The position numbers and the translations under genes are program-made. From Elusimicrobiota bacterium (lineage in GTDB: Bacteria; Elusimicrobiota; Elusimicrobia; UBA1565), in NCBI GenBank assembly GCA_043819795.1, contig JBDREN010000120.1, forward strand, positions 25,681-89,680: 64,000 nucleotides of DNA, given 5' to 3'. Below are positions 30,143 through 52,697 of this stretch, one piece after another (position 1 is the stretch's first letter; every line of letters begins with the position of its first letter). The notes below the pieces were generated by a model, which made no database searches, had not been told where the DNA came from, and was given only the letters and a program-made list of their open reading frames with translations.

Positions 30143-30209
30143 TCTTGGGCATAGCGCGGGTTTTTCATACCATCTCCCATCGCTTGAGCACATCCCCGGG
30201 AGATACATC

Positions 30210-33200
30210 ATGACGCGACTGACCCTATCGCTCGGCCTTCTCGCCACGCAGGCCGCCGCCGAGCCCGCGCTCGCCGATCCGAGAGACTTCACGAAGGACG
30301 CCGAGATCGAAGGCTACCGCGTGATCAGCCTATACCTCGACGTCCAAGGCCAGCCCATGGGGGCCCGCTTCCGCCACGGCAACGGCATGCCGGTCGATAT
30401 CATCCGGGTTCCCTCGGTCCCGCAAGTCTCGCTCAACGTGGCCACGCCGCCCGATTCGGACAAGGGGGAGCCCCACACCCAGGAGCATCTCATCCTGGGC
30501 AAGGGGAAGACCGGCATCTATCTCAACAGCCTGTTCTCTATGAGCCTGGCCGACCACACCGCCGCCACGTACGCGGACGTGACCAACTACCAGTTCCATA
30601 CCGCGGCCGACAAGGAGACGTTCTACCGCCTCCTTCACCAGTTCTTCAAGGCCTTGATCCGTCCCGACTACACCGACGAGGAGATCCGCCGGGAGGTGGC
30701 GAACCTAGGCGTGGTCGAGGATCCGAAGTCCGGGCTGCTGCGTCCCGAAGAGAAAGGGACCGTCTACAACGAGATGGTCTCCACGATGGAGAAATCGGAC
30801 AGCGTCAACTGGTATCAGATGACGCCTCTCATCTTCGGGAAGGACAACCCCATGGCGCGCAACCAAGGGGGGCTGCCCTCCGCGATCCGCGAGATGACCC
30901 CGCGGGACATCCGGCGCTTCCACCGGATCCGCTACCACTTCGGGAGCAACATGGCGCTGATCGCCGCTCTCCCGGCCAGCTATCCCTTCCGCGAGTTCCT
31001 CTCGCGCCTCAACGGCGTCATGAAAGCCGTCGAGCCCGAGGCGCTCGACGCGGCGCCCGGCTGCCTGCCGCGGACCGGAGGCGGGACCGGTGAGCGGTGC
31101 GCCCGCTATCCCGCGATCCCCCCGTATAAGCCGGCGAAGGGAGCCCCCATCGTCATCGGCTCGTATCCCGGAGAGGACCCGAACCTCCCGCAAAGCGTCG
31201 CCTTCTCCTGGAAGCCCCTGAAACGAGCGCTCTCTCCCCGGGAATCGGTGGAGCTGGGCCTGCTGTTGTCGGTCCTGGCCGACGGCGAGACCTCATTCCT
31301 CTATCGGGACCTCATCGATGAGAAGACGCGCGCGATGGGGTCGGGCGCGACCAACGTGGGCTCCTACTTCCTGGAGGCTCCCGCGAACGTCCCGATGGTA
31401 TTCCTCTCGGGCCTGCCCCCCTCCGACCTGACCCGGGACAAGCTGGGCGAGATCCGGAAGGCGGTCATGAACCGCGTCCGTTCCCTCCGCGAGGCGCGGC
31501 GGCGCTCCCCCGTGCTCAAGGAGCTCAACGACAAGGCGGCCTCGCTGCTCTCGTCCCACCGGCGCAGCGCGCTCAAGTTCATCGACGCGCCGCCCGGCTT
31601 CGGCCGCCGCCATTCCGGGATATCCTGGCACCAGCATCTCGACACCCTGCACCAAGCGCCGGGGTTCCGCAAAGCGTTGGCCATGACCCCCTGGTTCGAC
31701 GCGGTGGAGAAGAAGCTCAAGAGCGGAGACAACTTCTGGGAGTCGGTGATCCTGCGAAACGGCCTCGATAAGGAGCCGATCGTCAGCGCGGTCAGGCCGG
31801 ACAAGTCCCTTTTGGAGTCCGACAGGAAGGCCAAGGCCGAGCGCCTCAAGGCGCATGAAGCCCGTCTTCTGCGGAAGTTCGGGACCAAGGACGCGCAGCG
31901 GGCGCTCGCCCGCCACAAGACGGAGCAGGAAAAGAAGACCGCCGAGCTCAAAGAGCAGGAAGAGTCCGTTAAGCGGCCCCGCTTCGTGGGCGATCCGCCC
32001 TTGACCCTGGACGAGATGATAGACTGGGAGGAAGGCGTCCTGAGCGGCCCGGTCCGGGTGGTGACCAGCCGCTTCCCCTCGACGCCGTTCACCGACGTCC
32101 ACGTGCTTTTCGACCTGCGGAGGCTTCCGGAGGAGGACCTCCCCTACCTGCCGGTCCTGCCCCCGCTGCTAACGGAGCTCGGCGCGACCACCCGGGACGG
32201 CGAGCGCCTCGACTACGTCGCGATGCGGGAGCGCTGGCGCGCGGAGATCTACGGCCTGAGCGCCAGCCTTTCCGAGAACCCCCGTACCGGGCGGCTCGAG
32301 CTCTCGCTCGCCGCCTCCGGCTCCGGCCCGCGGGAGAACGTGAAGGCCGTCGAGTGGCTCGAGAACTGCCTCTTTCGGGCGGACGTTTCCAGCCGTACGA
32401 CCGGCCGCCTGCGGGCGGTCCTCCGCGACCGGATCCGCGGCTTGCGCCAGATATTCCAGCTCTCGGAGGAACGCTGGGTGCGGCAGGCCGCCGACGCCTA
32501 CGCCTATCAGGACGATGCCCGCTGGATGAGCGTGAAGAGTCCCTTCACGCGTCTTCAGCACTTCAACCGCGTCTATTTCCGCCTTGCGGGTTATCCCGAC
32601 GCCGGGACCCGGGCCCTCGTCGAAGAGACCCTGCGGGACCTGGCCCGCGAGACGCGCGAGGGGACCCGCGCGCGGATCATGGAGCGGATCGACGGCCTGG
32701 CCTCGGGGGCGGGGCTGCGGCCCGAAAACCCCGAAACGCCGATCCTCGTCGACTTCGGCCAGTACCTGCAGGCCGAGCTGGCTTGGCTGCCCGAAGGAAG
32801 CTGGCGCAGGGACCTCGCGCGGATGATCCGGCAGACCGCGGCCGACCTGGCCCGCGACCCCGCCGCCGAGATGCGCCATATGAAGAATATCCTGTCCGAC
32901 ACGCTCACCAGGCGGAACGCGCGCGCGGCGCTGACCGGGAACCCGAAGGACACGAGGGACATCCTCCCGGCGCTGCGCTCCTTGGCGGAGGCTCTTCCGA
33001 AGGGCAAAAGGCCCTCGTCCCGCCGAGGACGGACCGGGTCCGTGGTCCTGGCCCGGCTCCGGGAGCGCCATCCGGGCCTCAAGAGGCCGGTCCACGTCGG
33101 ACTCGTCAACAACAGCACGAAATCCGGCGTCTATGTGCTCTCCGCGGCGGCCCCTTCTTATTGGGACCGCGGCGAGGACGCGGCGCTGGATTACCTGGCA

Positions 33201-38585: not shown

Positions 38586-41500
38586 ATGCTACGGCATACG
38601 CATACTCTTTTAAGGAAAGGCATCGCCTCGGCCCTGGCCGCGACGCTGGTCATGGTCGCGCCGGGCACCGGCTGCTACCAAGCCCTGGCCGGCGCCGTCG
38701 CGGTGAACGTGGGGACGCAGATCAACGCGGTCCCGGGCGCGCAGGCGGCGGCCGGCGTCGCCCGGATCGCCGCCGGCGGCGCGCAGGGATCTCTTTCGGT
38801 TTCGCCGCGCGCGCTCAGCCTCCAGGGCGCTCTGCGGCTGACGCCCTCGGTCCGGCCTTCGCTTTGGACATCTCCCGAAACGGCGGCCATGGCGCTGCCG
38901 CTTCCCGCCGCGGCTCCGACGCCGATCCAGAGCGAGCCGGGCACGGCGGGTTTCCACGCGCCGCTGAGCGGCGCCGCGGACGCGGTCCGGTCGCGTGGGC
39001 CGGCCCAAGCGGCGGATCCGGGCGCGCCGTCTCTCAATAAGCTCCTCTCCGCCCGGCGGGACCTCGCTCCGCCGGCCGCCGAGATATCCCGCATGTCCGT
39101 CGGCGGCGCGCGGCATCTCGGGCAGGCCGTGATGGACCGTATTCTGGGCCGCCGGGGCGCCGGCAGCGCGCATTTCGAGGCCGAGGCGGCGGATGTCCGG
39201 CCGCTGGGTCACGGCGTCGGCGATCCGAACGGGAGATTGGAGCCGTACGCTCCCCGGGCGGGCTTCGCGCGGGAGACCGCGGCCGTCCCTGAGCCGAGCA
39301 AGCCCGGCCCGAAGGCCAGCGACCTGCCGGGCGGGGACAGCGAGGCCTTCAGCCCGACGACCGCCGGCGGCCAGTTCCTGGCGGGCGTGACGCACGCCGG
39401 GCTGGCGGTCGGGGCCTATCACTCGGCGCAGACCCTCCTCGGATTCACCGGCTGGGCCGCCTACGCCGCGTGGGGCATGTTCGGGCTCTCCGCGGTGCTC
39501 GGCGTGGGCGCGGCCGGCTTCGCGCTCCTCGCGTTCCGGATCGCCCTATCGAGAGGCGGCGAGACGGAGGCCGGCCGGCCGCGGGTGCTCAAGCCTCCGT
39601 ACACGTTCTTCCAGAAGGGGGGATTCCGGAGGATCTTCCTCACGGCGCCGGTGGGACGGCCGCCGGTCTACATCACGAAGGCCGCGGCCCGCCCCCTGCA
39701 GTTCCACAAGAGGGTCAGCGAGCGCTTCGGGCATTTCGCGGCGTACTCCCTGCAGGGCTTCTCCCACATCAGGTACATCATCGGCGAAACCGCCGGCCTC
39801 GTGCGGGCCGTCGCCGGCTTCGGTATGCTGATCCGGGACATGTTCCGCGGCAACCCCGAGGTAGCCCCGTTCGTCCAGCGGCACAAGAAGCACGTGCACG
39901 TGCTTCGCGGCATCAACATCGTCCAGGCGGCGATCGGCGTGGGGACGAGCTACATCGCGGGCTCCCTGGTGGATACGGCGCTGGCGAAGAACGCCGGCAT
40001 GGGCTGGGTGCTGGGCGGAGCGCTGGTGGGCATCGCCGTGGCGAACCTCGTCATGAATACGGCCTACGCCTGGCTCAAAGGCCGCCTTAACGGCCAGGTG
40101 CTGCGGGACTTCCGGCTGCGCGTCTTCCGGCACGTCCTCACGCTGCCCTTCGGCTTCTTCGCCAAGGAGAAACCGTCGAAGGTCGCGGCGCGCCTCAGCG
40201 AGGACGTCGACCAACTCGCCGCCAAAAACATCGACATCCCGGTCCTGCTCCCCTATTACGCCGCCATGGCGGCCGTGGCCGGAGTCATGATGGCGATCAC
40301 CAGCTGGCAGGTGACGCTGATCGTGACCGCCGTCGTGCCCCTGATGGGGCTCATCTCGCTGATCTACGGCAACAAGGCCGAGAAGCTGAACGAAGCCCAG
40401 ATGAACGCCCGGGTCGAGGTGATCAGCGCGGCCGAGGAGTCCCTCGCGAACATCCGCGACGTCCGGGGCTTCTCCGCCGAGAACAAGGAGGGGGAGCGCT
40501 ACGGGAAGCGGGCGGAGCACTATCTCGGCATCGTCTTGAAGAGGGAGCGTCTGGCGGCGGGCTACAACGGAGCGATGGGCCAGATGTACCGGTTCGCCTT
40601 CTACCTCACCGTCCTTTTGATCGGGCTCTTCTCCTATATCTACACGGGCGCGCCGAGCGTCGGGCAGACCACGGCGATGGTGGGATACGCGGGCTTCCTT
40701 CAGCAGGCTCTGGCCGGGTTCCTGAACCTGTACACGCGATACCGCGAGACGACCGGCGCGGCGCGGCAGGTCCTCGACTATCTGAAACAGAAGCCCGCGG
40801 TGAACGAGGCGCCCGACGCCGTCGATCCCGGCCCGCTGAAGGGCCGCGTCGAGTTCAAGGGCGTCTCATTCTCCTACGACGAGAACACTCCCGCCCTTGA
40901 GGACGTATCCTTCTCCGTCCAGCCCGGCCAGAGGGTCGCCATCGTGGGCGAGGCCGGCGTGGGCAAGAGCGCCATGCTCGACCTGATCCTCAGGCTGCAC
41001 GACCCCGACATGGGAGGCGTCGCCTTCGACGGCAAGGACGCGCGGGCGCTACGCCTGAGCCCCCTGCGCCGACAGATCGCCATGCTCCACGACAAGGGCA
41101 TCTGGATGGACGGCACCCTGCGGGAGAACCTGCTCTACGGGGTATCGGAGGGCACCACGGACGCGGACATTCTCGACGCCCTTCGCCGGGTCGACGCCGA
41201 CTTCGTCGACGACAGGTCCCAGTTCCCCGAGGGGCTGGACCCGCGCGTGGAAAGGAGCGACCGCCGGCTGACGGAGGCCCGCCGCAGGCACCTGGAGGCG
41301 GCCCGAGCCCTGTTGACGAAGCCGGGGATCGTGCTCCTCGATCGCCCCACCGCGGGCCTCGACAGCAAGGAGGAGGGGAAGCTGCGCCGGGGTCTGCAAG
41401 CGGTCCAGCGAGGCAAGACGACCTTCATCGTGGACCAGCGCATCAGCTCCGCGAGGAACGCCGACGTGATCCTCGTCCTTGAGGGCGGACGTATCGTGGA

Positions 41501-41591
41501 GAAGGGGACCCACGCGGAGCTGATGGCGGCGAACGGCCTCTACCAAAGGCTCTGGAACGCCGAGATGTCCAAGCGGTCCTCCTCGAAATAG
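38586..41591 (+). CDS. ABC exporter (TMD+NBD half-transporter) with long Ala/Pro-rich N-terminal extension and degenerate ATPase motifs
   Basis: 6-TM ABC membrane domain; V.F..VSFSY; Walker A GEAGVGKS. Signature, Walker B Glu and H-switch are altered. Confidence 0.85.
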   Translation: MLRHTHTLLRKGIASALAATLVMVAPGTGCYQALAGAVAVNVGTQINAVPGAQAAAGVARIAAGGAQGSLSVSPRALSLQGALRLTPSVRPSLWTSPETAAMALPLPAAAPTPIQSEPGTAGFHAPLSGAADAVRSRGPAQAADPGAPSLNKLLSARRDLAPPAAEISRMSVGGARHLGQAVMDRILGRRGAGSAHFEAEAADVRPLGHGVGDPNGRLEPYAPRAGFARETAAVPEPSKPGPKASDLPGGDSEAFSPTTAGGQFLAGVTHAGLAVGAYHSAQTLLGFTGWAAYAAWGMFGLSAVLGVGAAGFALLAFRIALSRGGETEAGRPRVLKPPYTFFQKGGFRRIFLTAPVGRPPVYITKAAARPLQFHKRVSERFGHFAAYSLQGFSHIRYIIGETAGLVRAVAGFGMLIRDMFRGNPEVAPFVQRHKKHVHVLRGINIVQAAIGVGTSYIAGSLVDTALAKNAGMGWVLGGALVGIAVANLVMNTAYAWLKGRLNGQVLRDFRLRVFRHVLTLPFGFFAKEKPSKVAARLSEDVDQLAAKNIDIPVLLPYYAAMAAVAGVMMAITSWQVTLIVTAVVPLMGLISLIYGNKAEKLNEAQMNARVEVISAAEESLANIRDVRGFSAENKEGERYGKRAEHYLGIVLKRERLAAGYNGAMGQMYRFAFYLTVLLIGLFSYIYTGAPSVGQTTAMVGYAGFLQQALAGFLNLYTRYRETTGAARQVLDYLKQKPAVNEAPDAVDPGPLKGRVEFKGVSFSYDENTPALEDVSFSVQPGQRVAIVGEAGVGKSAMLDLILRLHDPDMGGVAFDGKDARALRLSPLRRQIAMLHDKGIWMDGTLRENLLYGVSEGTTDADILDALRRVDADFVDDRSQFPEGLDPRVERSDRRLTEARRRHLEAARALLTKPGIVLLDRPTAGLDSKEEGKLRRGLQAVQRGKTTFIVDQRISSARNADVILVLEGGRIVEKGTHAELMAANGLYQRLWNAEMSKRSSSK

Positions 41592-41598
41592 CCGCCCG

Positions 41599-42813
41599 TC
41601 ACTCGCGACGACGCCGCGCCTGACTCCCCAGGTTCTTCCAGATCCCCAAGCCCTTGGCCCCCATCCTCAGCGCGGCCCGGCGCAGCCTCTCAGCCAAGGA
41701 GGCCTGATGTCCCCAGAGCGCCGCCTTGTCCAGATCCTCCAGGCAGCCGGCGCCGTCGCCCAAGGCGAGCCGCACCTCGGCGCGGAGCCGGTGATGCCAG
41801 CCGGGCTCGGGATGAAGCCGCGCGCAGCGGTCCAGGTCCCGCAGGGCGGGCTCGAGCCGCTTCAGGCTCAAGAGGCACCGCGCGCGCCACGCTAAAGCCT
41901 GCCCCCAATCCCCCCGTTCGGCGACAAGCCGCGAGAAATGCCGCTCGGCCTCCTCGAAATCCCCCCCCTCGCACAGGCGTCTGCCGGTCTCGAGCGCGGA
42001 ATCCATCCCATCGGGACCCGTCACGTCCGTCCCGGCGGCCGCGGCCGGCGCTCGGGGATCGGTCGGCTCCGAGGCCGCCGGCGGGATATAAAGCGTGTTG
42101 AACTCGTTCGGGCTCTTCAGCGCTTGGGCGAGCCCGCTCAACGGCAACGTGCGCTTGCTCCCTTCCGGGTTGGCGATCCAAGGGCACTCGACCAGGGTCA
42201 CCGGATGCTCGGGCGGGTAGAAGCGCCCCAAGTGGTCGGCCAGAAGGCGTAGGCGGCCCTCCTGCTCCTCTTTTTGCAGGTAGCCGATCTTGACGATCAG
42301 GGTGGGCACCGAGGGCTGAAGGGGCGTGACGCTGATGAGCCCCGAGAACCCGTCGGCGTCGTAGACGTGCAGGCCGCTCCAGAGCGCGGTCAGCTCAAGG
42401 AAGCTCAAGACCGCGTCCAAAGAGGACACCGCGTTGAGTATCCGGTAGCCGATACCGCGCCTCCGGCAGGCCGCGATCAGGCCCTGAGAAAGGCTTGAGA
42501 GGAAAGTGGCGTGCCCGTAGTTGAGCACCGCGACGCGGCGGCCATCTTCCACGACGCGAAGGACCTCCTCCACCTTCCGCGACGCCACCTCGTCATAGGA
42601 GCCGCTTCCGGCCAGATCGTTGAGGTCCCTCACGTCCCCGCAGAGGCGCAGCACCAGGCCGGAAGTCTTGTCATCCAAGGCGTCGGTGAAGACGACCGTC
42701 GCGTCCTTGAGGGCCTGGCTGGTCTCCAGAGTCATTTGGGGCAGGTCCAGCCCGAACCCGCAGATCGTCAGCGAACCCTCCCGGCCGCCGCGCGAGGGGC
42801 TTCCTTTACCCAT
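41599..42813 (-). CDS. Tetrapyrrole-methylase-fold SAM-dependent methyltransferase, borosin-like, with C-terminal TPRs
   Basis: GSLTICGFG...QMTLE...L..A..VF, V..G.RVA...YGHA.F, AVSSLD, G...YDA, L...YPPEHPV; TPR-like helices in the C-terminal third. Confidence 0.7.
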   Translation of the reverse strand: MGKGSPSRGGREGSLTICGFGLDLPQMTLETSQALKDATVVFTDALDDKTSGLVLRLCGDVRDLNDLAGSGSYDEVASRKVEEVLRVVEDGRRVAVLNYGHATFLSSLSQGLIAACRRRGIGYRILNAVSSLDAVLSFLELTALWSGLHVYDADGFSGLISVTPLQPSVPTLIVKIGYLQKEEQEGRLRLLADHLGRFYPPEHPVTLVECPWIANPEGSKRTLPLSGLAQALKSPNEFNTLYIPPAASEPTDPRAPAAAAGTDVTGPDGMDSALETGRRLCEGGDFEEAERHFSRLVAERGDWGQALAWRARCLLSLKRLEPALRDLDRCARLHPEPGWHHRLRAEVRLALGDGAGCLEDLDKAALWGHQASLAERLRRAALRMGAKGLGIWKNLGSQARRRRE

Positions 42814-44215
42814 ATCGGCCGCCCCACAGCGCCAGCGTCAGGACGTCCCGCCGCAGCAGCACGGTAAGCACCGCGCCGAGGAATATCCAGAAAGCGAACG
42901 GCCTGGTCTTCTTGAACGCCACGACCTGCAGCGCGCGGCTCCGGCACCAATGCTTGAACGCGCCGGTCTGCTCCGGCGTCAGCCCGTCCGGATAGAGGCG
43001 GTCGAAGTGGTCCCTGAAATACTCCGGGTCCTGCCTCAGGGCTCCGATGGTCTCCTCGGCGGGCACGAGGTACGGATGCACCTTTTTGAGAGGGAGATAG
43101 ACGACGTCCTGCTCCAAGAATGAGGAGACCAGGAAGTAGGCCAGCCCGCAGAGCGTCCCCCACAGGGCCCAGCCCAACAGGCCCGACGCGCCGGCGTAGC
43201 CGAGGCGGGCGAGGACCGCGCCGGGGCCGATGATCGAGAGGATCAGGGACCCGATCCAAAGCAGCGCGAGGAAACGCTCCCGCACTCCCAGAAAGACTCG
43301 AACCATGGCCTTGCCGGCATCCATGGCCGCCATGAAGAAGAGCCATTCCCACCAGTTGCCCCAGAAACGCGGCCAGTCGCCCGGAGCCGCCTGGTACGCG
43401 GCCGCCGCGAGAGCCGCCAGGCAGAGCCCCCACGCGACGCGCTCGCCGGCGGCGCGCCGGAGGAGGTCCCAGACCAGGAAGACCCCGATAAAGAGCGCCG
43501 GCTCCGGCATCCCGACGAAGGCGCGCGCGCCGTCCAGCCAGGTGGCGGCGGCGGCGCCCACCACGGTGAAACCCATCCTGCCGGCCAGGCCGTAGGCGGA
43601 GGCGCGCGGGTCCCGGCGCAGCCCGGTCCAAGACTCCGCCAGCCTCCGCGAGACTTCGGCGCGCAGCTCGGCCTGGCTCTTAATCAAGTAGGGAAGCAGG
43701 CGGAAGAGGCCCAATTCCCGGAGGAACCCCGCCCCGTGCCTCAGCTTGAACCTCCATACCCACCACATGGTGCGCGCGACCACGAAGAGCGCGGCCGGAA
43801 TGAAGATGTTCATCAGGAAAGCCAACGCCAAACGACCCGGCAGGAGCGCGCTGCCGGGATCGACGATAGGCAGCCACAGGCACAGAAGCAGAAAGAGCTT
43901 GGCGTCGCCCGCCGGCCACAGGCCGAGCCGCCAGATCAGCACGCCGGCCGCGACGGCCGCGGCCATATGGACGAGGATCGCGGGATAGAACGACCATGCG
44001 GGGTAGGCCCGGAGGAAGGGAGCGGGGAGCAGGCCCTTCGAGGCCAGGGCCGTCCATCCGATATACGCCGCGTAGGCGAGCCCCACGACCTTCAGGCAGG
44101 CCAGCAGCATGCGGTTGGGGATCCTCTTGTACTTGTGATCGGTGTAGAGGACGACGACAGCCGCCGCGAGAGTGAGCGCCGCCAGCGGCCAGCGCACCGC
44201 CTCCGCCACGCTCAT
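42806..44215 (-). CDS. A24-family prepilin/preflagellin-type aspartic peptidase
   Basis: Two catalytic Asp motifs, YTD...KRIPN and AGDAKL; multiple TMs; C-terminal GLT.EQ...PFA.WIFLG. Confidence 0.82.
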   Translation of the reverse strand: MSVAEAVRWPLAALTLAAAVVVLYTDHKYKRIPNRMLLACLKVVGLAYAAYIGWTALASKGLLPAPFLRAYPAWSFYPAILVHMAAAVAAGVLIWRLGLWPAGDAKLFLLLCLWLPIVDPGSALLPGRLALAFLMNIFIPAALFVVARTMWWVWRFKLRHGAGFLRELGLFRLLPYLIKSQAELRAEVSRRLAESWTGLRRDPRASAYGLAGRMGFTVVGAAAATWLDGARAFVGMPEPALFIGVFLVWDLLRRAAGERVAWGLCLAALAAAAYQAAPGDWPRFWGNWWEWLFFMAAMDAGKAMVRVFLGVRERFLALLWIGSLILSIIGPGAVLARLGYAGASGLLGWALWGTLCGLAYFLVSSFLEQDVVYLPLKKVHPYLVPAEETIGALRQDPEYFRDHFDRLYPDGLTPEQTGAFKHWCRSRALQVVAFKKTRPFAFWIFLGAVLTVLLRRDVLTLALWGGRYG

Positions 44216-44285
44216 CCGCTCATCTTCTCTGCAAAAAGCAGGAAGCCGAGCGCCCGGGAATCCCCGCCTGAGCGGGCCGGGGGCC

Positions 44286-44642
44286 TCATGTGCCGCTGCC
44301 GTGCGAGCCGTGGGAGCCGTGGGAGCCGTGGGAGCCGTGCGAGCCGTGCGAGCCGTGCGAGCCGTGCGAGCCGTGGGAGCCGTGCGAGCCGTGGCTCGTA
44401 TGGCTCCCCACGCCCCCGGAATTGTGCAGCCAATTGTTATGGTAGGGCGTCGCGGCCAAAGCCACGTCCACGGCCGAGCCTATCAAGCCGAGGGCGATCG
44501 CGGTCTTGACCACGTCCTGCTCCACGATCTTGCCCTCCTCGCTGCTGAGGAATACGGAGGCGTCCTTGGCCGCCTTCGCGATCAGCTTCTTGCCTTTCGT
44601 CCTCGATGTCTTCTTCCGCTTCTTCTTTTTCGGCCCGGCCAT
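44286..44642 (-). CDS. His-Xaa-Ser repeat RiPP precursor (HxsA-like)
   Basis: RBS GAGGGG; Lys-rich N-terminus, FLSSEEG, hydrophobic segment, then HNS...HTS(HGS)11GT. Confidence 0.88.
   Translation of the reverse strand: MAGPKKKKRKKTSRTKGKKLIAKAAKDASVFLSSEEGKIVEQDVVKTAIALGLIGSAVDVALAATPYHNNWLHNSGGVGSHTSHGSHGSHGSHGSHGSHGSHGSHGSHGSHGSHGSGT
44295..44393 (-). repeat. 9-bp tandem repeat x11 encoding His-Gly-Ser
   Basis: CAC-GGC-TC(C/G) units; variation is confined to the Ser codon (TCC/TCG/AGC). Confidence 0.95.
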
Positions 44643-44652
44643 GGCTATCCCC

Positions 44653-46929
44653 TCAGGCTGTCTCTACGGCTTTTTCTTTCCGCCCCTTCTCAGGAGCCCC
44701 GCCGCCGGCGGGTACCGCCTGAAAAAACGTCCAGGTGACCTTCTTATTGAGCTTCCCCGCGGCGCTCAGGGAAACCGGCTCAGCCGACAGCTCCCAACCG
44801 GCTTCGCGCAGGTCCCGGGCCACATGCGCTCCGATCTCGGCGGGCTTGTCCGGCTCCCCGCTCCCTTGGCCCCGCCTCCCGATAAATTCGAGGTCCGCCA
44901 GCCCCACCGAGTCCATCCACATCACGAGCCGGCCGTCCTTCACCGGGTTGCGCTCCCGGAGCCAGCGCAGGACCAGGACGCGCAGGGAGGGCGGGATCGC
45001 GCGATAGACGTTCGAGAGGACCGTGGCTTCGAACGGACGCCCGGGGGACGGGAAGAGCCGCTCCCAGCGCTCCGCGCGCGTCTCCTCTAGGTGGATATGC
45101 CCGCTCCCCTGCGCCTGACAGATCTCGAAGGTGTCGTCCTGAATCGTCGATAGGACATGGATCATATGGGAACCGCGGCAGAACTGCTGCTCCCCTTCCA
45201 CCTTCTCCCACCCCATCCAGCGCATCCGGCCGCTGCCGAAACGGACTCCGCCCAGAAGCTTGAGAAGGATCGGCCGGAACGCCCGGACGCCCAGTACCCG
45301 ATCCCACAAGACCCGGCTCTCCTGAGAGCGGAAAAAATGGCGCAGCGCGGGCCACTCGTCCGAGCGGCCCGCGGCCTCGAGCTCGGCCCGGGTGAACGCG
45401 GCCAGGGATTCCAGGTACTTAAGGCGTTGCTCGGCCGCGAGCCCCTCCCACGCGACCGGCTCCCGGACCATCACCTTCCCGAGGGCGTCATAGCTGGCGT
45501 ACCACGAGCGGTTGAGCCTCAGGACGTCCCCCCCTCCGTCCATATGCCTATAGACCCTCTCGTACATGTCGACCCAGGGCGTGCGGGGGACGGAAGCCGA
45601 ATCCTGCGGACGCCCGACCTCGCCGACAGTCTCCAAGGCCCGCCGCACGGGCCCGTACTTGTGGACGGTGAGCACGCGGATAGTCAACCAGTCGCATTTC
45701 TCGATATCCTCTTCCGAAAAACTCTCAGTCGAGACGATCCGATAGGGCGGCTCCTTCTGCGCCCGCGTGATGCCGTAGATCTCCGGATGCCTGCCGTATT
45801 CGGCCCCGGGCAGCGCGAGAGCGCGCGGAAGGAACATGGACTTGGGCTTCTTTGCGAGCACCCATTCGAGCGAACGCCGGTACCCGGCCGCGTCGTCGTC
45901 CGGAAGGCCGTGGATGAGCTGAAGATGCGTGCTGGCCTGCGGCGCGAGCTTGCGTAGGTTCCGGAGGGAGCGCTCCGCGCCGCGAAGGCTGAAGCCCCGC
46001 GCCATGCGCTTGAGCGCCTTGGGCTGGATGGTCTCGACGCCGGCGCCCAGAGAGAACTTGAGAGAGTCCAGACTGCGGGCCAGATCCTCATCGATATTCG
46101 TCAGGTTCGTCTGGAAATGCCAGTGCACGCTGGCGTCGCCCGTAGCCCGGTCGAACTCCTCCAGCAGGTAGGCCGCGCGGCCCTTATCGCTGAAGACGTC
46201 CGCGTCCGTGACGAAATAATACATCCCGGTGGCCTGGCGATGGACGGCCTCCACCTCGCGAACGGCGCGCTCCTTGGGGAACCAGCGGGTCTTCTGCCCG
46301 TTATGCCAATCGCAGTACCGGCACCGTTTGGGGCAGCCCCTAGAAGTCTCGAGCGCGAGGCAAGCGTCGTCCTCCCGGATCTCGAAAGTCCCGTCCAGAT
46401 AGGGCGAGGGGATGACGGACAAATCCTCGATGAGCGGCCGCTCGGGCGTCTCGACGGGACGGCCGGCCTCGCGGTACGCGAGGCCGGGAACCCGGCCCAA
46501 GGAGCGGCCCCGCGCCCAGGCCTTGAGGATCTCGGCGAACGTGACCTCTCCCTCGCCGCGGACGACGACGTCCGCCTCGGGGATATCGCGCAGGACCGCG
46601 GCGGCGCGAACGCTCACCTCAGGACCCCCGAGCACGATGCGCAAGCCGGGCCGGTCCTTCTTGAGCTCCCGGCAAATCGCCGCGACGCGGGCCATGTTCC
46701 ACAGGTAGCAGGAGAAACCCACGACGTCCGGCTCCTCCTCGAGCACCGCGCCGCCGACCACATCCGGTTTCGATTGCACGCTGTGCTCCAGGAGCGTCGT
46801 ACGCACGAGGCCCTTGAGCTCCCGCAGCGAGTCCGCATAGGCCTTCAGATAGCCCAAAGACAGCGTATGGCGGTAGTAGTCATGGTAGCGTAGGCCGACC
46901 AGTACCGCGGACAATCTCGCCTTAGCCAT
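44653..46929 (-). CDS. B12-binding radical SAM protein (class B methyltransferase-like) with a C-terminal class I MTase-like extension
   Basis: LSLGYLKAY, PDVVGFSCYLWN, VLGGPEV, GEGE.TF, IPSPYL, ETSRGCPKRCRYC, LIHGLP.D. Confidence 0.88.
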   Translation of the reverse strand: MAKARLSAVLVGLRYHDYYRHTLSLGYLKAYADSLRELKGLVRTTLLEHSVQSKPDVVGGAVLEEEPDVVGFSCYLWNMARVAAICRELKKDRPGLRIVLGGPEVSVRAAAVLRDIPEADVVVRGEGEVTFAEILKAWARGRSLGRVPGLAYREAGRPVETPERPLIEDLSVIPSPYLDGTFEIREDDACLALETSRGCPKRCRYCDWHNGQKTRWFPKERAVREVEAVHRQATGMYYFVTDADVFSDKGRAAYLLEEFDRATGDASVHWHFQTNLTNIDEDLARSLDSLKFSLGAGVETIQPKALKRMARGFSLRGAERSLRNLRKLAPQASTHLQLIHGLPDDDAAGYRRSLEWVLAKKPKSMFLPRALALPGAEYGRHPEIYGITRAQKEPPYRIVSTESFSEEDIEKCDWLTIRVLTVHKYGPVRRALETVGEVGRPQDSASVPRTPWVDMYERVYRHMDGGGDVLRLNRSWYASYDALGKVMVREPVAWEGLAAEQRLKYLESLAAFTRAELEAAGRSDEWPALRHFFRSQESRVLWDRVLGVRAFRPILLKLLGGVRFGSGRMRWMGWEKVEGEQQFCRGSHMIHVLSTIQDDTFEICQAQGSGHIHLEETRAERWERLFPSPGRPFEATVLSNVYRAIPPSLRVLVLRWLRERNPVKDGRLVMWMDSVGLADLEFIGRRGQGSGEPDKPAEIGAHVARDLREAGWELSAEPVSLSAAGKLNKKVTWTFFQAVPAGGGAPEKGRKEKAVETA

Positions 46930-46965: not shown

Positions 46966-49181
46966 TCATGCGGCCTCCGTCGAAAAGACCGTCCAGCGGC
47001 TCCCCGCGGCCGAAAGGGACTCGGGCTCGGCCCGGAGCCTCCAGCCGCAGCGGCCCAGCTCCCCAGCCAGCTCTCGAGCCCGGATGGGGGACGCCTCCGG
47101 AGCGCTCCCTCCGGAGGACAGCCAGAACCGGTCCCTTTCCAGGAGCGAGGGCGCCGCCAGATCGTCGAAGACGGCCAGCCGCGCGCCCCGCCCAGCGCGC
47201 CGGCGCAGTCCCGAGAAGAACCGCTCCCGTTGGGACGGAGTGAGAGAACGGCACACCTGGGAGACCACCGCCCGCCTCAGGTCCCGGGAGCCCGCCCCCG
47301 CGGGACGGCCCTTCTCGAGGACCCCGCGCTCCACTCCCCGCTCGAGATCGTCCGCCCTGAAATGGAAGCCGTCCGCGCAGTGGTCGTCGAACTTCACGAG
47401 CGGAGATACCCAGTGCAGGCGCCGCGCGCCGGGCAGGAAGCGCCCTCGGCCGCCGAGAACTCCTCGCACCCGATCCAGCAGTCCTCCGCCGCGGGGCCGC
47501 GTCCGTTCGCGGAGCCTCCGACGAGCTTCTCCACGAGGCGATGGAATGCGACCGTCCGCGTCAGGTCCTTCCACAATAGGACGCGGCGCTGGCGCTCCAA
47601 AAAAGCGTCGAGCGGCGGCCAGGCGTCCGCGCGGCCGGACTCCTCCAGGGCCCGGCGCGCGTAGGCGCGGAGCCGGTCGACGAACTCCCGGCCGTGGGCC
47701 CGCAGGAAATCGTGTCCCCAGGGCTCCTCGTCGAAGGTGACGAAGCCCAGCAGGTCCTTGCGGGCCCGGCGATAGAGCTCGCTCAGATCCAGAGGCGTCC
47801 CCTCCAGCGAGCGCGCGAAACCCTTGAGCGAGCGGACATAGCTCATGGGAACCCCGCCCGCGAGGCTGGCCCCCAGATAGCGCAGCGCCCGCGCGACGAA
47901 GCCCGCTCCCTGGAATGTGAAGTTCCAGAAGGCCAGCATGTCGGCGGCGCGCAGGTCCCGCGCGCTGAAGGAATCCGAGGACAGGACGCGGTACGGCGGC
48001 TCCTTCTGGCAACGGAGCCCGTAACGCTCGGGGTCGTCCCCCATGCCGGAGCCGGGAAGCGCCAGCGCCGGGAACAGCATGAGGGTATCGGGCCACAAAG
48101 ACAAGGCGTACTCGATGGAAGCCTCGAAGCCTTCCAGGTCGTCTCCGGGGAGGCCGTAGATCAGCTGCGCGTTGAGCTTGGCCCGCGGCGCCAGGCGGCG
48201 CAGGAGAGCGGCGTTGGCCCGGGTCTTGGCGTCGTCGAAGAATCGGGTGAGCCCCCGCAGGACGTGAGGGTTGACGGACTGGATGCCCACGGCCAGGGTG
48301 AACTTCTCCGAGTCCAGAGACGCCATGAGCTCCTCGTCCATCCCGAGGTTCGGCAGGTAGGTATGCAGCTCCCAGACGCAGCGCTTGCCCTCGCCGGCGC
48401 GCCGGAAGCCGCGGATGAGCCGCCGGCCCCGCTCGCGGTCGAGGAACATGTCCGCGTCGCACATGAACACTTTGGCCCGGGGAAGCTTCTCGAGCAGGAG
48501 GCGAGTCTCCGAGAGGACCCTCTCTTCGTCGAAGGTCCGGACCCGGCGCTTGTTCTTCCAGTCGCAGAACTTGCAGTCGAACGGACAGCCGCGGTCGGAC
48601 TCGAAGCAGAGGTGGGGATAGCCGCCGAGCGGCAGTATGCCCTCGAGAAAAGGAGAGGGGATCTCCCCGAGATCATCGACAAGGGGACGGGCCTCATTGA
48701 GCCGGACTCCCTGTCCCCCGCGCCAAGCGAGGCCGGCCACGCGCTCCAGGCGCTCGCTTCCCCCGCCCGACAGGAGCGCCCGCAGCAGGTCCGCGAACGT
48801 CGCTTCCCCCTCCCCGACGACGATGAAGTCGGCCTCCGGGCATGCGTCCATGTAGCGCAGAGGGCGCGCAGAGACTTCGGGACCGCCGAGGACGACCATC
48901 AACTCCGGCCTCGCGCTCTTGAGACGGCGCGCCAGGGCCGCGATCCAGCGGACGTTCCAGAGGTAGCACGAAAGACCCACCATGCCGGGAGAGGAGCTCA
49001 GGACGCGGTCGGCGGCGGCGGCGACCGCGTCCGAGGTCGAAAATACCTCGATCCCGATGGAGAGCCGCCGCTTGAGCCCGGGGCGCGACTGGGCGTAAGC
49101 TTGGAGATAGCCCAGAGCCAGGCCGCAGTCGTACGCGCAGTGGCGGACCCCGACCAAGCGGACGCCGAGGCGTTCCGTCAT
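46966..49181 (-). pseudogene. B12-binding radical SAM paralog interrupted by a 1-nt frameshift near 47443-47445 (595-aa N-terminal ORF 47394-49181; C-terminal domain in another frame to 46966)
   Basis: GLSCYLWN, VLGGPEV, GEGE.TF, ESDRGCPFDCKFC. The shifted frame continues ...GWRLRAEPESLSAAG, matching the paralog's GWELSAEPVSLSAAG. Confidence 0.8.
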
Positions 49182-49184
49182 TCG

Positions 49185-50357
49185 TTAGCGCTCCTCCTCG
49201 ACATCTTCCCCGACCTCTTGCAGCCTTTCTTCCCATGTCTTCGGCGCCGACTTCTCGGGAGTCCCTTTCCCCTTGCCGCTCCCCGCTTCGCGCTTCCGCA
49301 TCTCCTCTCGATGCCGGCGGCGCCACTCCTTCTGCGTCTTCTTCTCCTCTTTCTCGATCCGCCGCCGCTCCCGCTCCTCGGCCTCATCCTGCCGAAGGCC
49401 GCCCGTGGCCTTACGCCTGTCGCAGAACAGGCGGGTCCAATACCGCGCCGCGGCCCGGCATTCCGCCATGGGCGCCTTGGCGAACGCGGCCCGGCACGCC
49501 ATTCTGTGCCGCTTGTCCTTGGGGCAGAGCCTCCGGTCCTTCTCGGCCAAGGCCGCGATGAAAGCGCGGCGCACGTCACAGAGCCTCGACTCCTCCTTCA
49601 TGGCGCTCTCGTACCGGGCGAAGCGTTGCTTGTCGAACTTCAATGAGCGCTCTTGCGAGAATCCCTCGACGGCCCGCATAAAGTCGCCTTCCTTCATCTG
49701 CGGCTGCCCGCAGGTCTCGCGCGAGGGCGCTATCGTTAAGGTGCAGTACATCTTGAACACCCGGGAGATCCCGGCCGGGACGACCTCCGACATCTCCCGG
49801 CAGGCCGAGCCGGAACCGGTGCGGATGACGTCGACCCCCGTCTTACAGAGCCTGGGGCAGTCCAGACGGAATTGCGCCTGGACATAATCCTCGCACCAGC
49901 GCCGGCAATGCCGGTCCGCGTCGGGATAGTCCTTGTGTTCAAGGGCGCTGTGCAGCCTGAGCAAATGGTGATCCCTGCGGCAGTCGGCATCCAGCAGGTT
50001 GGCGACGGAAAGGCCGTCGATCCCGCCAAGCGGGGCGCACGCGTCCTCATCGTCCTCCACGAAGGCCTTGCACTGGTAATAGCCGGCTAGCAGGTTGACG
50101 GCGTCCGCGCCCTGCTCCGGAGAAAAGCCCCAATGCTTGGCGCCGGCCTCGACCAGCATGGGGAACGTCGCGGTGGACATGCACGCCTCGTAGGTGGTGG
50201 GAAGCTGGGACCCAAAACCGCCATCGCCTCCTTGGGCCTGTGCCGCCGGCGCCGGAAGCGCCAGGATGAATCCCGCCGCGAGCGCTCTCAAAAAAAGCCT
50301 CCCGCCAGGAACGGCGGCGGCGCCTGCCCCTCCCTCCACGGGGACGGAGCGGCCCAC
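49185..50357 (-). CDS. Exported Cys-rich protein with charged C-terminal tail
   Basis: Signal peptide (AQA|QG); about 16 Cys; embedded in the operon. Confidence 0.7.
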   Translation of the reverse strand: MGRSVPVEGGAGAAAVPGGRLFLRALAAGFILALPAPAAQAQGGDGGFGSQLPTTYEACMSTATFPMLVEAGAKHWGFSPEQGADAVNLLAGYYQCKAFVEDDEDACAPLGGIDGLSVANLLDADCRRDHHLLRLHSALEHKDYPDADRHCRRWCEDYVQAQFRLDCPRLCKTGVDVIRTGSGSACREMSEVVPAGISRVFKMYCTLTIAPSRETCGQPQMKEGDFMRAVEGFSQERSLKFDKQRFARYESAMKEESRLCDVRRAFIAALAEKDRRLCPKDKRHRMACRAAFAKAPMAECRAAARYWTRLFCDRRKATGGLRQDEAEERERRRIEKEEKKTQKEWRRRHREEMRKREAGSGKGKGTPEKSAPKTWEERLQEVGEDVEEER

Positions 50358-51850
50358 CTCTCGAATATCACGCGCGTGCCCGGATCACGGAGATGCTCGA
50401 AAATCAGGTCGAAATAGCCCATATACATCGCGCAGCGGTCGCTGGTGGGATTCCGGCCCCATATCGAGCCCTGAGCCGCGTAGTTGTAGACGGGCGAGAC
50501 CCCGCAGAACGGCTTGTAGGCGCACTGAGAACAGAGGGGCTGGGCGCCCAGGTCCGAGGCGATGGTCGCCGCCTTGACCGTGGGGTGGTGCACAAGGTCC
50601 AGGAACCGCTCGTCGACGCTGCCGATCCGGAAGAAATCGTCCCCCTCCAGGTCGGCCAGCCCCCTCCCCTCGTCGCTAAGGAACACGTCCCCGTTGTGGT
50701 CGTAGCAGAGCTGGGCCAGACCGCCGCCGCAGGGAGAGCGCAGCTCCGTGTGGCCGGGGTCCTCGCCCCGGAGGATCTTGGTCAAAAGCAGGGCGGCGTT
50801 GCCCTCCATGAGATCGCATCCCGCGCGGTTGAGTTCCAGCACCCGCCGCAGGCAGTCGGCGTAGAACCCCAAGTACTCCTCGGCCGAGTAGCCAAGCTTC
50901 CGCCAGCGCTCCCGCGCCGCGCCCGCGGGAAACAGGGGCCGCGGGAACACCGCCGGCAGCTTCAAACGGGCGCATTCGGCGACGATGTCGCCCGCACGCG
51001 AGAGTGAGTCTCTTGTCACGGATAGCCACGCCTCCGGCGGCGCGGCGTGGGGGTAGCGCTCGGCGATGACCGCCAGCCAACGCGCCGCCTCCCCGTGGCC
51101 GCTCCGATCCCGGCGCGGCACGTCGTTCGTGGGCGGGAGGCGTCCACCGAGGAAGGGGCGGTGCCGGTCGTGCAGGTCCGCGGGACCGTCCAGGGGTACG
51201 CACAGACGGACCTCGTTCTCCATCAGGAAGGCCAGCTTATCGTCGTCCAGGAGGCTGAGGTTGGACACCATCGCCAGACGCAGGCTGCGTCTGGCGAATT
51301 CGGCGAACGAACGCGCATGGCTCACGATGAATTCCACCGCCGGCCAGTTCAGCAACGGCTCCCCCCCGCGCAGCTCGATCGTTATCTCGGAGGCTTGGCT
51401 GTCGAAGATGGATTTCACCACTCGGCGCGCGACCGCCAGCCTCATGTCGGGCCGGTCGTCTTCCGGAGGCTTGCGGGACGCGGGCTGGTAGGGAGAACCC
51501 TGGTTGCGCCGCCGCGTCACCGCGACGACGTGCAGCCCCGGGGCGCTCCGCAGGTAGGCGGTGCGCCTCTTGTATCGCTCGATCAGCAGGGGGAAATCCA
51601 GGTGGTCGCGCAGGAAGCCCTCGCCGCAAAGAGCGTTCCACAGGGGCGTCTCCTTGGCGATCCCGCCGGAGATGAACCGGCGGAAGTCCTCCGGCTCCAG
51701 CCACAAATGCCCGCCCCACTCGTTGGTCAGCTGATAGCCGCCGGCCAGGCGGCGGAACAGGCAGGGCCCGACGGAGCCTGGCAACTTCCTACCGATCAGG
51801 GGCTTCAGGGTCGCCGATACCGAGTTCGTCCAAGACCTTGAGTCTTTCAT
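50288..51850 (-). CDS. HxsB-like radical SAM/SPASM protein lacking the CxxxCxxC motif
   Basis: F.R....Y.LTNE.G N-terminus, GGEPLLN, LDGP..LHD.HR, ELRSPCG, Y..NGDV..SDEGR, CSQCAYKPFCG..PV.NY..QG. Confidence 0.8.
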   Translation of the reverse strand: MKDSRSWTNSVSATLKPLIGRKLPGSVGPCLFRRLAGGYQLTNEWGGHLWLEPEDFRRFISGGIAKETPLWNALCGEGFLRDHLDFPLLIERYKRRTAYLRSAPGLHVVAVTRRRNQGSPYQPASRKPPEDDRPDMRLAVARRVVKSIFDSQASEITIELRGGEPLLNWPAVEFIVSHARSFAEFARRSLRLAMVSNLSLLDDDKLAFLMENEVRLCVPLDGPADLHDRHRPFLGGRLPPTNDVPRRDRSGHGEAARWLAVIAERYPHAAPPEAWLSVTRDSLSRAGDIVAECARLKLPAVFPRPLFPAGAARERWRKLGYSAEEYLGFYADCLRRVLELNRAGCDLMEGNAALLLTKILRGEDPGHTELRSPCGGGLAQLCYDHNGDVFLSDEGRGLADLEGDDFFRIGSVDERFLDLVHHPTVKAATIASDLGAQPLCSQCAYKPFCGVSPVYNYAAQGSIWGRNPTSDRCAMYMGYFDLIFEHLRDPGTRVIFERWAAPSPWREGQAPPPFLAGGFF

Positions 51851-52307
51851 TGAGGTCCACCGCTCCGCCCCGTCCTTCCACTTCGTCCTTCCCGGAGCCC
51901 ACGTTGAGCTCCCATTCCGCCTCCCGGATCAGCTCTTGGATCTCGTTCTGTTCGTTCCCGGAAGGGCCGGCCGACCGGGCCGGATCCGGCCGCTCGCCGC
52001 GCTCTCCCGCGGCGGCCAGCAGCGCCTGGGTGATGATGAATTCCCGGACGGAGCGGTTGTCCGCCGCGATGCGGCGGCGCAGCTCCTGGGCGATGGCCTC
52101 CTCCGAGAACTCCTCGGCCAGCGCCTCGAGCGCCCGCCGGCTGGAGCGCTTCTTGGGCCTGAGGGTGAGTCCGTTCTTCCGGACCCAGACCTCGGCCTTG
52201 CGCGTAAGGACCTGCGCGGCGCCCAGGACCGCGTCGGGATGGATCGCCCCGGGATCGAGGGTCACCGAGACCGTCTGGTCCTTCTCGTTGAGCTTTCGCT
52301 TTGACAT
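51789..52307 (-). CDS. HxsD-like His-Xaa-Ser system accessory protein
   Basis: RBS GGAGAAGG; A...AA..L...A.V and EF.EE...QELR..I......VRE.II..AL pattern; first gene of the operon. Confidence 0.65.
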   Translation of the reverse strand: MSKRKLNEKDQTVSVTLDPGAIHPDAVLGAAQVLTRKAEVWVRKNGLTLRPKKRSSRRALEALAEEFSEEAIAQELRRRIAADNRSVREFIITQALLAAAGERGERPDPARSAGPSGNEQNEIQELIREAEWELNVGSGKDEVEGRGGAVDLNERLKVLDELGIGDPEAPDR

Positions 52308-52495: not shown

Positions 52496-52547
52496 GATGT
52501 CGCGTGCGCGATGTCGCGTGTCGTGCGATGTCGCGTGATGTCGCGTG
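52496..52547 (+). repeat. Four copies of GATGTCGCGTG
   Basis: At 52496, 52510, 52527 and 52537, in the divergent intergenic region. Confidence 0.8.
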
Positions 52548-52697
52548 CGACCCTGACGCAGGGCGCCCGATCCGGCTATGATACAATCAGGGCAGGTGGA
52601 CTCGATGAGGCGGCAGCTTCCTCGGGCCGGCCGCCCGGGGAAGCTGTGTCGGTGGCCAGTGCTGGGAGAGCGTCAAAGGTCCAAGGAATCCGATTAG

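Follow-up and report, generated by a model that had tools for sequence, protein, structure and literature searches.

The window analyzed here is a 64,000-nucleotide stretch of an Elusimicrobiota bacterium genome (GCA_043819795.1, contig JBDREN010000120.1, positions 25,681 to 89,680). On its minus strand, it carries a gene for a short His-Xaa-Ser repeat precursor and, 70 bases past the stop of this gene, the start of a gene for a membrane aspartic peptidase of family A24. A24 peptidases are known for processing type IV pilins and a few pilin-like proteins. The initial annotation had described the two genes as the precursor of a ribosomally synthesized and posttranslationally modified peptide (RiPP) and its dedicated prepilin-type peptidase. 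They lie side by side as described, and their coordinates, strand, and sequence were confirmed. The pair is a real and well-supported gene partnership, and its features, in window coordinates, are the following.

44286..44642, minus strand: HxsA4 His-Xaa-Ser precursor, 118 amino acids (aa), a member of NCBIfam HxsA4 (NF038313, 79.8 bits against a cut-off of 55), from this match and the translation
44532..44552, minus strand: leader motif F31-L-S-S-E-E-G37, with a predicted A24 cut after G37, from homolog conservation and the predicted interface
44454..44531, minus strand: signal-like segment K38-A63 with a putative export role, made up of a charged n-region, an uncharged stretch of 12 residues, and a final A-L-A, from sequence, position counts, hydropathy, and A-x-A enrichment
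44295..44402, minus strand: core repeats, HTS and 11 HGS
42806..44215, minus strand: A24 (FlaK-type) membrane aspartic peptidase of the WPAGDxK family, 469 aa, from PF01478, invariant Asp residues, the structural model, and a FlaK fold match
44138..44140, minus strand: codon of catalytic Asp26, from sequence and invariance
43904..43906, minus strand: codon of catalytic Asp104 (GD of WPAGDAK), from sequence and invariance

From its N terminus, the precursor has a basic segment, the motif FLSSEEG37|K38, the charged stretch KIVEQDVVK, an uncharged run, ALA63|A, and the His-Ser repeats. The residues after G37 read K38-I-V-E-Q-D-V-V-K-T-A-I-A-L-G-L-I-G-S-A-V-D-V-A-L-A63. The core contains 13 HxS repeats in all, 12 of them in tandem (HTS and then 11 tandem HGS). 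The initial annotation had given no family for the precursor, which is HxsA4. The stretch before the core had been called hydrophobic, which is true of a 12-residue uncharged run (T47-V58) but not of the whole, since K46 and D59 lie inside it.

The leader motif is more than a chance match, because F[LIV]xxEEGK was present in the first 60 residues of only 2 of the 4724 coding-like open reading frames (ORFs) of the source genome, both of which are HxsA4 precursors; the looser pattern [FY][LIV]xxEx[GA] was present in 29. Positions relative to the predicted cut were counted in 46 distinct precursors from the fetched loci, a part of which had been found with a hidden Markov model (HMM) that includes the leader. 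The set excludes four ORFs that have repeats but no motif (three in the wrong frame or strand and one cut by a contig end). All 46 precursors have F or Y at -7 and E at -3; at -1, 44 have G and 2 have A. K is found at +1 in 35 precursors, and E at +4 in only 5 and at +5 in 11. Since the HMM includes the leader, the precursors fetched through the peptidase alone form the unbiased subset, and the motif was present in all 21 distinct complete HxS-repeat precursors from those loci. A leader profile matched 690 clusters at 50% identity, and the best 150 of these, a set chosen by leader, were also counted. The motif was found in 149 of the 150, the exception reading EEC. In these 149 homologs, F at -7 and E at -3 are conserved, -1 is G in 144 and A in 5, and K is frequent at +1 (119), +4 (127), and +9 (108), while E is found at +4 in 8 and at +5 in 27. 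On these alignments, F-x-x-x-E-x-G is family-wide. Conservation of EEG among homologous precursors, which the initial annotation had made decisive for its proposal, was therefore found in both sets (46/46 and 149/150). The glutamate at +4, which it had set beside the usual pilin Glu at +5, is incidental: a shifted pilin Glu5 is rejected because Glu is not conserved there (5 of 46 and 8 of 149 homologs), most homologs having K.

Among the 21 precursors fetched through the peptidase alone, the nine archaeal ones have E-[RK]-G, with S, G, Q, or A as the next residue. Archaeal class III leaders typically have a basic residue at -2, and in the source genome a Flp-like pilin reads EKG| and one major pilin KRG|. 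Fewer than three HxS repeats were found in 63 of the 149 leader homologs, some of which are fragments, and the leader therefore appears to serve varied cores. One precursor with an EEG leader carries His-Gly-Asn repeats in place of His-Xaa-Ser (L135:7503-7922). An Atlas search with the leader returned only unnamed clusters, below 0.9.

The peptidase carries D26 (in YTD) and D104 (in WPAGDAK), which bears out the two A24 aspartate motifs reported for this gene. All 80 aligned homologs retain D26 and W-P-A-G-D104-x-K, where WPAGDxK was itself the selection pattern for most rows, D26 entered through a looser pattern that dropped three rows, and one more row was dropped for length. PF01478 scored 21.5 bits (E value of 3e-4) by hmmscan against a gathering score of 26.5, and 27.6 bits when summed over the frame. 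Among the 80 homologs, at E values of 0.01 or less, 49 matched Peptidase_A24, 15 matched Arc_PepC, and 5 matched Arc_PepC_II. The peptidase was modeled with a predicted local distance difference test score (pLDDT) of 90. In a wide structural search of 48,161 chains, archaeal FlaK (3s0x) was the top match, with a Z score of 10.3 that falls in the tool's ambiguous range for helical proteins, where a chance match is possible (173 of 186 residues, root mean square deviation [rmsd] of 3.6; the next match had a Z score of 8.2 and an rmsd of 8.1). Like this ambiguity, the absence of any Foldseek match for the model and the failure of a profile search of solved structures to find FlaK count against the assignment. 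Because the 3s0x match spans the whole target and agrees with the Pfam and Atlas hits, the modeled protein is best read as an archaeal-type (FlaK-type) A24 peptidase, with a large membrane insertion, no PilD methylase domain, and WPAGDxK instead of the GGGD motif of FlaK. In a FastTree phylogeny, the window peptidase groups with those of genomes G182, G382, and G342, and at the corresponding loci (L067, L068, and L070) the precursors have the same GSGT ending as the window precursor. When the interface columns were examined by eye for a charge swap against E or K/R at -2, archaeal peptidases differed around the YxDGL loop, a difference confounded with lineage. Relatives of the peptidase were sought in viral contigs, where eight pattern matches were obtained and none confirmed, and in plasmids, where one archaeal query found none.

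The distributions of the two genes were compared in 401 genomes of the phylum. HxsA4 was detected in 85 genomes and the peptidase in 87; 80 have both, 309 have neither, 5 have only the precursor, and 7 have only the peptidase. In the 80 genomes with both, the two share a contig in 54 and lie within 30 kb in 48 and within 15 kb in 37. Among the matches listed, two peptidases were present in 11 of the 13 genomes with two precursors and one peptidase in 66 of the 67 genomes with one precursor. This count dropped two C-terminal peptidase halves and four repeat-only precursor fragments (three at contig starts; the one on contig C28 of G317 shares its contig with a peptidase). Since the genomes are kin, no P value is given. 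The source genome itself has two precursors (contigs C120 and C32) and two peptidases (C120 and C4), in addition to a PilD near type IV pilus genes.

Two negative controls were available. Tad (tight adherence) and type IV pilus machinery, to which the initial annotation had pointed, are both encoded in the source genome, but the distribution of Tad is independent of the peptidase. The Tad locus (C216, 31566-38920) encodes the Flp-like pilin SEKG|QNTVEY, and no TadV-like gene was found at this locus, so the peptidase might serve Tad. CpaB, a Tad marker, was present in 326 of the 401 genomes, and the Flp pilins of these genomes are therefore probably processed by PilD. In family f4, CpaB was present in 114 of 118 genomes and the peptidase in 1 of 118; in family f16, the counts were 61 and 0 of 89. 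The peptidase distribution does not track Tad, and the peptidase as the missing TadV is disfavored by these counts. The other control came from three genomes (G258, G111, and G140) that have top-scoring HxsB and neither HxsA4 nor the peptidase. The precursors beside HxsB in G258 and G140 lack the motif, and no precursor was found in the stretch fetched from G111. The HxsA of G258 (L216:7752-8105) retains a comparable basic helix, after which QDQD takes the place of EEG, and it is possibly a form that lost both motif and peptidase.

In 69 peptidase loci drawn from all GTDB genomes (Elusimicrobiota, Moranbacteria, Omnitrophota, and DPANN), radical S-adenosylmethionine (SAM) or Hxs genes were present in 53, a precursor in 25, and a pilus gene in 3. 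Five sampled genomes of the candidate phyla radiation (CPR) and DPANN each have a further A24 peptidase besides the one with WPAGDxK.

A complex of the two proteins was predicted from the 80-row peptidase alignment and a 40-row alignment of precursor residues 18 to 72. The score, which is a prediction and no measurement, was 0.63, compared with 0.02 for the best of three controls; the mark is reached by 116 of 157 solved pairs and by 2 of 215 mismatched ones, which holds only roughly for the present alignments. The runs agreed in at least 84% of contacts, and the partner pLDDT was at least 64. The predicted interface includes D26, residues 98 to 105 with D104, and precursor residues 30 to 49 without a break, and it places D43 of the precursor in contact with L99, beside the WPAGD104 loop. 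The prediction places the EEG region at the side of the peptidase where Asp26 and Asp104 lie. The Foldseek, profile, and wide structural searches brought up no comparable solved complex, and a likeness to pilin-peptidase pairs is possible. Because co-occurrence, the copy-number match, the two negative controls, and the passing complex prediction agree, we consider it very likely that the peptidase is a dedicated partner of the HxsA4 precursor family.

A class III signal consists of a leader ending in Gly or Ala and then 20 to 25 mainly hydrophobic residues, often with Glu5 (PMC10191384). The leader end of the precursors conforms to this description, with G or A at -1 in 149 of 149 and 46 of 46 homologs. 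The segment that follows does not have the character of a pilin helix: the uncharged run begins at +10 and has a median length of 15 residues across the family, and the mean hydropathy from +1 to +21 is 0.91 for the family and 1.08 for the window precursor, compared with 1.82, 2.33, and 2.79 for three prepilins of the source genome. In the window precursor, +5 is Gln. The Flp pilin family PF04964 (Flp_Fap) had no match in the source genome, and the Tad locus lies on another contig. Without a conserved Glu, and with a charged segment and a short hydrophobic stretch, the product is therefore not a pilin. The polymerizing or stably anchored Flp-like product that the initial annotation had suggested is not supported by the same counts (no conserved Glu5, a median of four charges from +1 to +9, and a hydropathy of 0.91 against 1.8 to 2.8).

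The same segment has features of an export signal. A strict A-x-A before the first His was present in 56 of 135 homologs, compared with 30.8 expected from shuffles, and a loose A-x-A in 114, compared with 74.1 expected. After the Gly, the family consensus S/T-K-K-x-[IVL]-[LVI]-K leads into a stretch of moderate hydrophobicity and then A-x-A. Judged from its sequence, K38-A63 resembles an internal export signal that ends like a signal peptidase I substrate. The site ALA|A had been offered as an alternative to the A24 cut. Because A-x-A is enriched across the family, a second step is more likely than an alternative.

The twin lysines of this consensus recall the twin-arginine translocation (Tat) motif S-R-R-x-F-L-K (PMC5539426), but RR was found in 0 of 149 homologs, with KK in 59, KE in 27, and KQ in 27. 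A Tat signal with KK, KH, or KQ is inactive except when the hydrophobicity of its h-region is raised (PMC5539426). TatC is present in the source genome and was not found in five of five sampled CPR/DPANN hosts, all of them incomplete genomes. Tat export is disfavored by the lack of RR and by the failure to find TatC in these small-genome hosts.

The pair belongs to a closely spaced run of minus-strand genes with the order HxsD-like, HxsB-like, Cys-rich, B12 radical SAM, 143-aa ORF, second B12 radical SAM, HxsA4, peptidase, and borosin-like methyltransferase.

41599..42813, minus strand: borosin-like methyltransferase domain with tetratricopeptide repeats (TPR), PF00590 over cut-off; overlaps the peptidase stop
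44653..46929, minus strand: B12-dependent radical SAM enzyme, 758 aa (PF02310 and PF04055)
46966..47397, minus strand: 143-aa ORF with homology to the C-terminal tail of the 758-aa protein, at 32% identity across 115 aa (E value of 2e-7)
47394..49181, minus strand: B12-dependent radical SAM enzyme, 595 aa (PF02310 and PF04055), 39% identical to the 758-aa paralog
49185..50291, minus strand: Cys-rich protein with 16 Cys and no family, putatively secreted from its signal-peptide-like N terminus
50288..51850, minus strand: HxsB-like protein without CxxxCxxC (TIGR03978, 352 bits against a cut-off of 370)
51789..52307, minus strand: HxsD-like protein (TIGR03976, E value of 9e-7, 29 bits against a cut-off of 50)

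HxsC (TIGR03977) was not among the matches listed for the 13 ORFs scanned at the locus. Since no HxsC was found there and the HxsB-like protein lacks CxxxCxxC, the modification may be carried out by the two B12 enzymes or by the complete HxsB copies encoded on contigs C32 and C96. Further radical SAM genes are present on other contigs. HxsB-like proteins without CxxxCxxC recur in the source genome, accounting for three of five paralogs (the window copy and C32:26830-28272 and 29366-30652). The window copy retains the C-terminal Cys cluster, and such proteins may act as leader-binding scaffolds. The 595-aa B12 radical SAM gene and the 143-aa ORF (46966-49181) jointly match the 758-aa paralog, which from their sequences suggests a split gene or a frameshift. 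The nearest solved relatives of the borosin-like domain are dbOphM, OphMA, and SonM (E value of 3e-9, full-domain match). In the alignment, YGH is kept, but conservation is lacking in the Tyr/Arg-rich segment that precedes it; the residues of both have catalytic roles in OphMA/SonM-type domains. A borosin-like methyltransferase also lies directly downstream of the peptidase in G382, G267, and G278. With its active-site residues apparently kept only in part, the enzyme could methylate the core backbone or, as PilD does, the new N terminus.

The locus shares features with several known systems. The canonical four-gene HXS system is characterized by antiphage activity and a +8 Da modification. 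Its HxsA, matured by HxsB, HxsC, and HxsD, is delivered to the periplasm and prevents phage DNA from entering (PMC13128918). The HXS antiphage system of Pseudomonadota (HxsD-HxsB-HxsC-HxsA; TIGR03976-03979) has in common with the window locus a His-Xaa-Ser repeat precursor, HxsB- and HxsD-like genes, and, presumably, N-terminal processing and export of the precursor (PMC13128918). In contrast, the window precursor is short, with an EEG leader and an A24 peptidase of its own, and its locus also encodes two B12 radical SAM enzymes and a borosin-like methyltransferase. The HxsB there lacks CxxxCxxC, and HxsC was not found among the 13 ORFs scanned. The HXS report calls HxsA processing and export noncanonical and names no protease in its main text (PMC13128918). 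The name of the family to which the window precursor belongs, HxsA4 (NF038313), gives no processing route either; the link to a peptidase is added here.

The window peptidase has in common with archaeal FlaK (3s0x), PibD, and EppA the fold, the two catalytic Asp residues, and the absence of a methylase domain. EppA is a precedent for a second A24 peptidase with its own substrates and PibD for nonpilin substrates (PMC4390842). The window enzyme differs from them in WPAGDxK, in its large membrane insertion, and in its context of radical SAM rather than pilus genes, and its precursor differs from their substrates in Lys at +1 and in charge from +1 to +9. With Flp prepilins and their peptidases TadV/CpaA, the common feature is a leader ending in E-x-G (SEKG|Q in the Flp-like pilin of the source genome). 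Unlike these prepilins, the precursor lacks E5/Y6 and a long hydrophobic helix from +1, has no Tad genes nearby, and is distributed independently of Tad.

Together, these data suggest a two-step route, which we consider reasonably likely as a whole. The modifying enzymes, here the two B12 radical SAM enzymes, the HxsB-like protein, HxsD, and the borosin-like methyltransferase, would bind the basic N-terminal helix and the FLxxEE handle. The short hydrophobic helix of the precursor is predicted to dock on the peptidase helix around residues 131 to 146, and Asp26 and Asp104 would cut G37|K38 on the cytoplasmic side. This cut would expose the signal-like segment K38-A63 and so drive export. In the least certain step, signal peptidase I would cut at A-x-A and free the modified His-Xaa-Ser core outside the membrane. 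Judged by part, a peptidase cut at the EEG Gly is probable from the conservation of the site, whereas for the second cut and release of the core, suggested by the A-x-A enrichment, the chances seem even. The proposal that a prepilin-type peptidase removes a RiPP leader therefore keeps its dedicated partner and its conserved Gly after EE, a likely predicted cut site, and loses its Flp-like product. From its sequence, the product is probably exported and not built into a pilus, and by analogy with canonical HxsA its site of action would be the periplasm, where it might keep phage DNA from entering.

A number of results pull the other way. The residue after the cut is Lys in 119 of 149 homologs, and a median of four charges stands between +1 and +9, unlike the hydrophobic run that follows a prepilin cut. 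In the window precursor, the n-region left by the cut is charge-neutral (KIVEQDVVK) and makes a weak export signal, and strict A-x-A is absent from 79 of 135 homologs. The most confident contacts of the predicted complex join the hydrophobic helix of the precursor (residues 43 to 52), and not EEG, to peptidase residues 131 to 146, and the output does not name the bond nearest both Asp residues. Peptidase and HxsA4 are adjacent (less than 500 bases apart) in only two genomes, and a copy-number match is expected of any cluster-inherited gene in related genomes. No radical SAM or Hxs gene was seen in the fetched stretch of 16 of the 69 peptidase loci, many of which belong to one Elusimicrobiota sub-clade and lie among TPR genes. 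Metagenome loci fetched by leader (the best 80 of 113) contained 50 distinct precursors, of which 9 had the peptidase within reach, as did 4 of the 16 with at least 10 kb; since the clusters are often longer than a 10-kb flank, its not being nearby need not mean absence.

Some of these results would fit a peptidase that acts on the precursor elsewhere than EEG, either nearer the hydrophobic helix or by clearing the signal-like remnant after signal peptidase I, with FLxxEEG serving mainly as a handle for the enzymes. The helix contacts, the approach of D43 to L99 near the WPAGD104 loop, and a Lys at +1 that is atypical of A24 substrates all favor such a cut, and the co-occurrence data are compatible with any cut site. 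We nevertheless regard it as unlikely, given that -1 is solely Gly (144) or Ala (5) in 149 homologs, both of them class III leader ends (PMC10191384), that archaeal precursors have K/R at -2 as in prepilins of the source genome, and that the predicted interface is unbroken through residues 30 to 49 and takes in both Asp residues. Lower still is the probability that the peptidase is a gene-island passenger or serves another substrate such as Flp/Tad pilins, the precursor being processed by signal peptidase I alone. That reading draws on the C216 Tad locus with its SEKG|QNTVEY pilin and no TadV-like gene found, on the peptidase sub-clade that lies among TPR and other genes, and on canonical HxsA, which is processed with only HxsB, HxsC, and HxsD (PMC13128918). 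It is opposed by the occurrence of Tad in 326 of 401 genomes, most of them without the peptidase; by HxsB systems with other precursors, which lack the peptidase; by the matching copy numbers; by the further A24 peptidase in each of the five sampled CPR/DPANN genomes; and by the passing complex prediction.

A product that is cut at EEG and then stays in the membrane or polymerizes like a Flp pilin, displaying its modified repeats, is about as improbable, or slightly more so. The leader does resemble class III leaders, the genome has type IV and Tad machinery, and archaeal PibD also cuts nonpilin sugar-binding proteins (PMC4390842). Glu5 in only 27 of 149 homologs and Gln in the window, an uncharged run that starts only at +10, the low hydropathy, the enriched A-x-A, the lack of a Flp_Fap match in the genome, and pilus genes in only 3 of the 69 peptidase loci all argue against such a product, although simple anchoring without polymerization is possible. 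Within the two-step route, we tentatively suggest, as a doubtful extension of it, that the A24 cut acts as a licensing switch, in which the cytoplasmic handle, with its class III-like final Gly, is removed once the radical SAM enzymes have finished and a hidden twin-lysine, Tat-like export signal is unmasked behind it. If true, RiPP leader peptidases would gain a new class, and A24 enzymes a member that accepts Lys at P1'. The peptide family that uses it, likely antiphage, would comprise at least 690 sequence clusters in Elusimicrobiota, CPR bacteria, and DPANN archaea.

To our knowledge, no A24 peptidase is known as a RiPP leader peptidase, and no paper on a pairing of an A24 peptidase with HxsA4 or with a RiPP was found in the literature searched, most subscription journals lying outside it. 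A real cut at this site would bring a further protease class into RiPP biosynthesis and extend the specificity of A24 peptidases to substrates with a charged P1' side. The pair would also offer a defined enzyme and site for the HxsA processing step left open in the HXS antiphage report (PMC13128918), and precursor and peptidase are testable as a two-gene construct.

Several further features were observed at the locus and elsewhere in the source genome. An ABC exporter of 1001 aa (permease and ATPase, with a long N-terminal extension) is encoded at 38586-41591 on the plus strand, convergent with the cluster. Upstream of hxsD lies a short imperfect tandem repeat (52518-52560) with a unit of about 10 bases resembling CGCGACATCG, and a promoter-like match (52553-52582) is close to it; the promoter and terminator scan yielded nothing informative. 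A Cys-rich ORF similar in appearance to that of the window lies between HxsB and HxsA4 on contig C32 (L002:398-1420), and the match between these two ORFs was not significant (E value of 0.07). Other His-Xaa-Ser-type clusters with many radical SAM genes are found at C32:23996-42926, C96:21294-26224, and C4:1066-24568. They include a gene that possibly resembles a flavin-dependent halogenase, by a motif characteristic of such enzymes, and the second HxsA4 and second peptidase of the genome lie within them.

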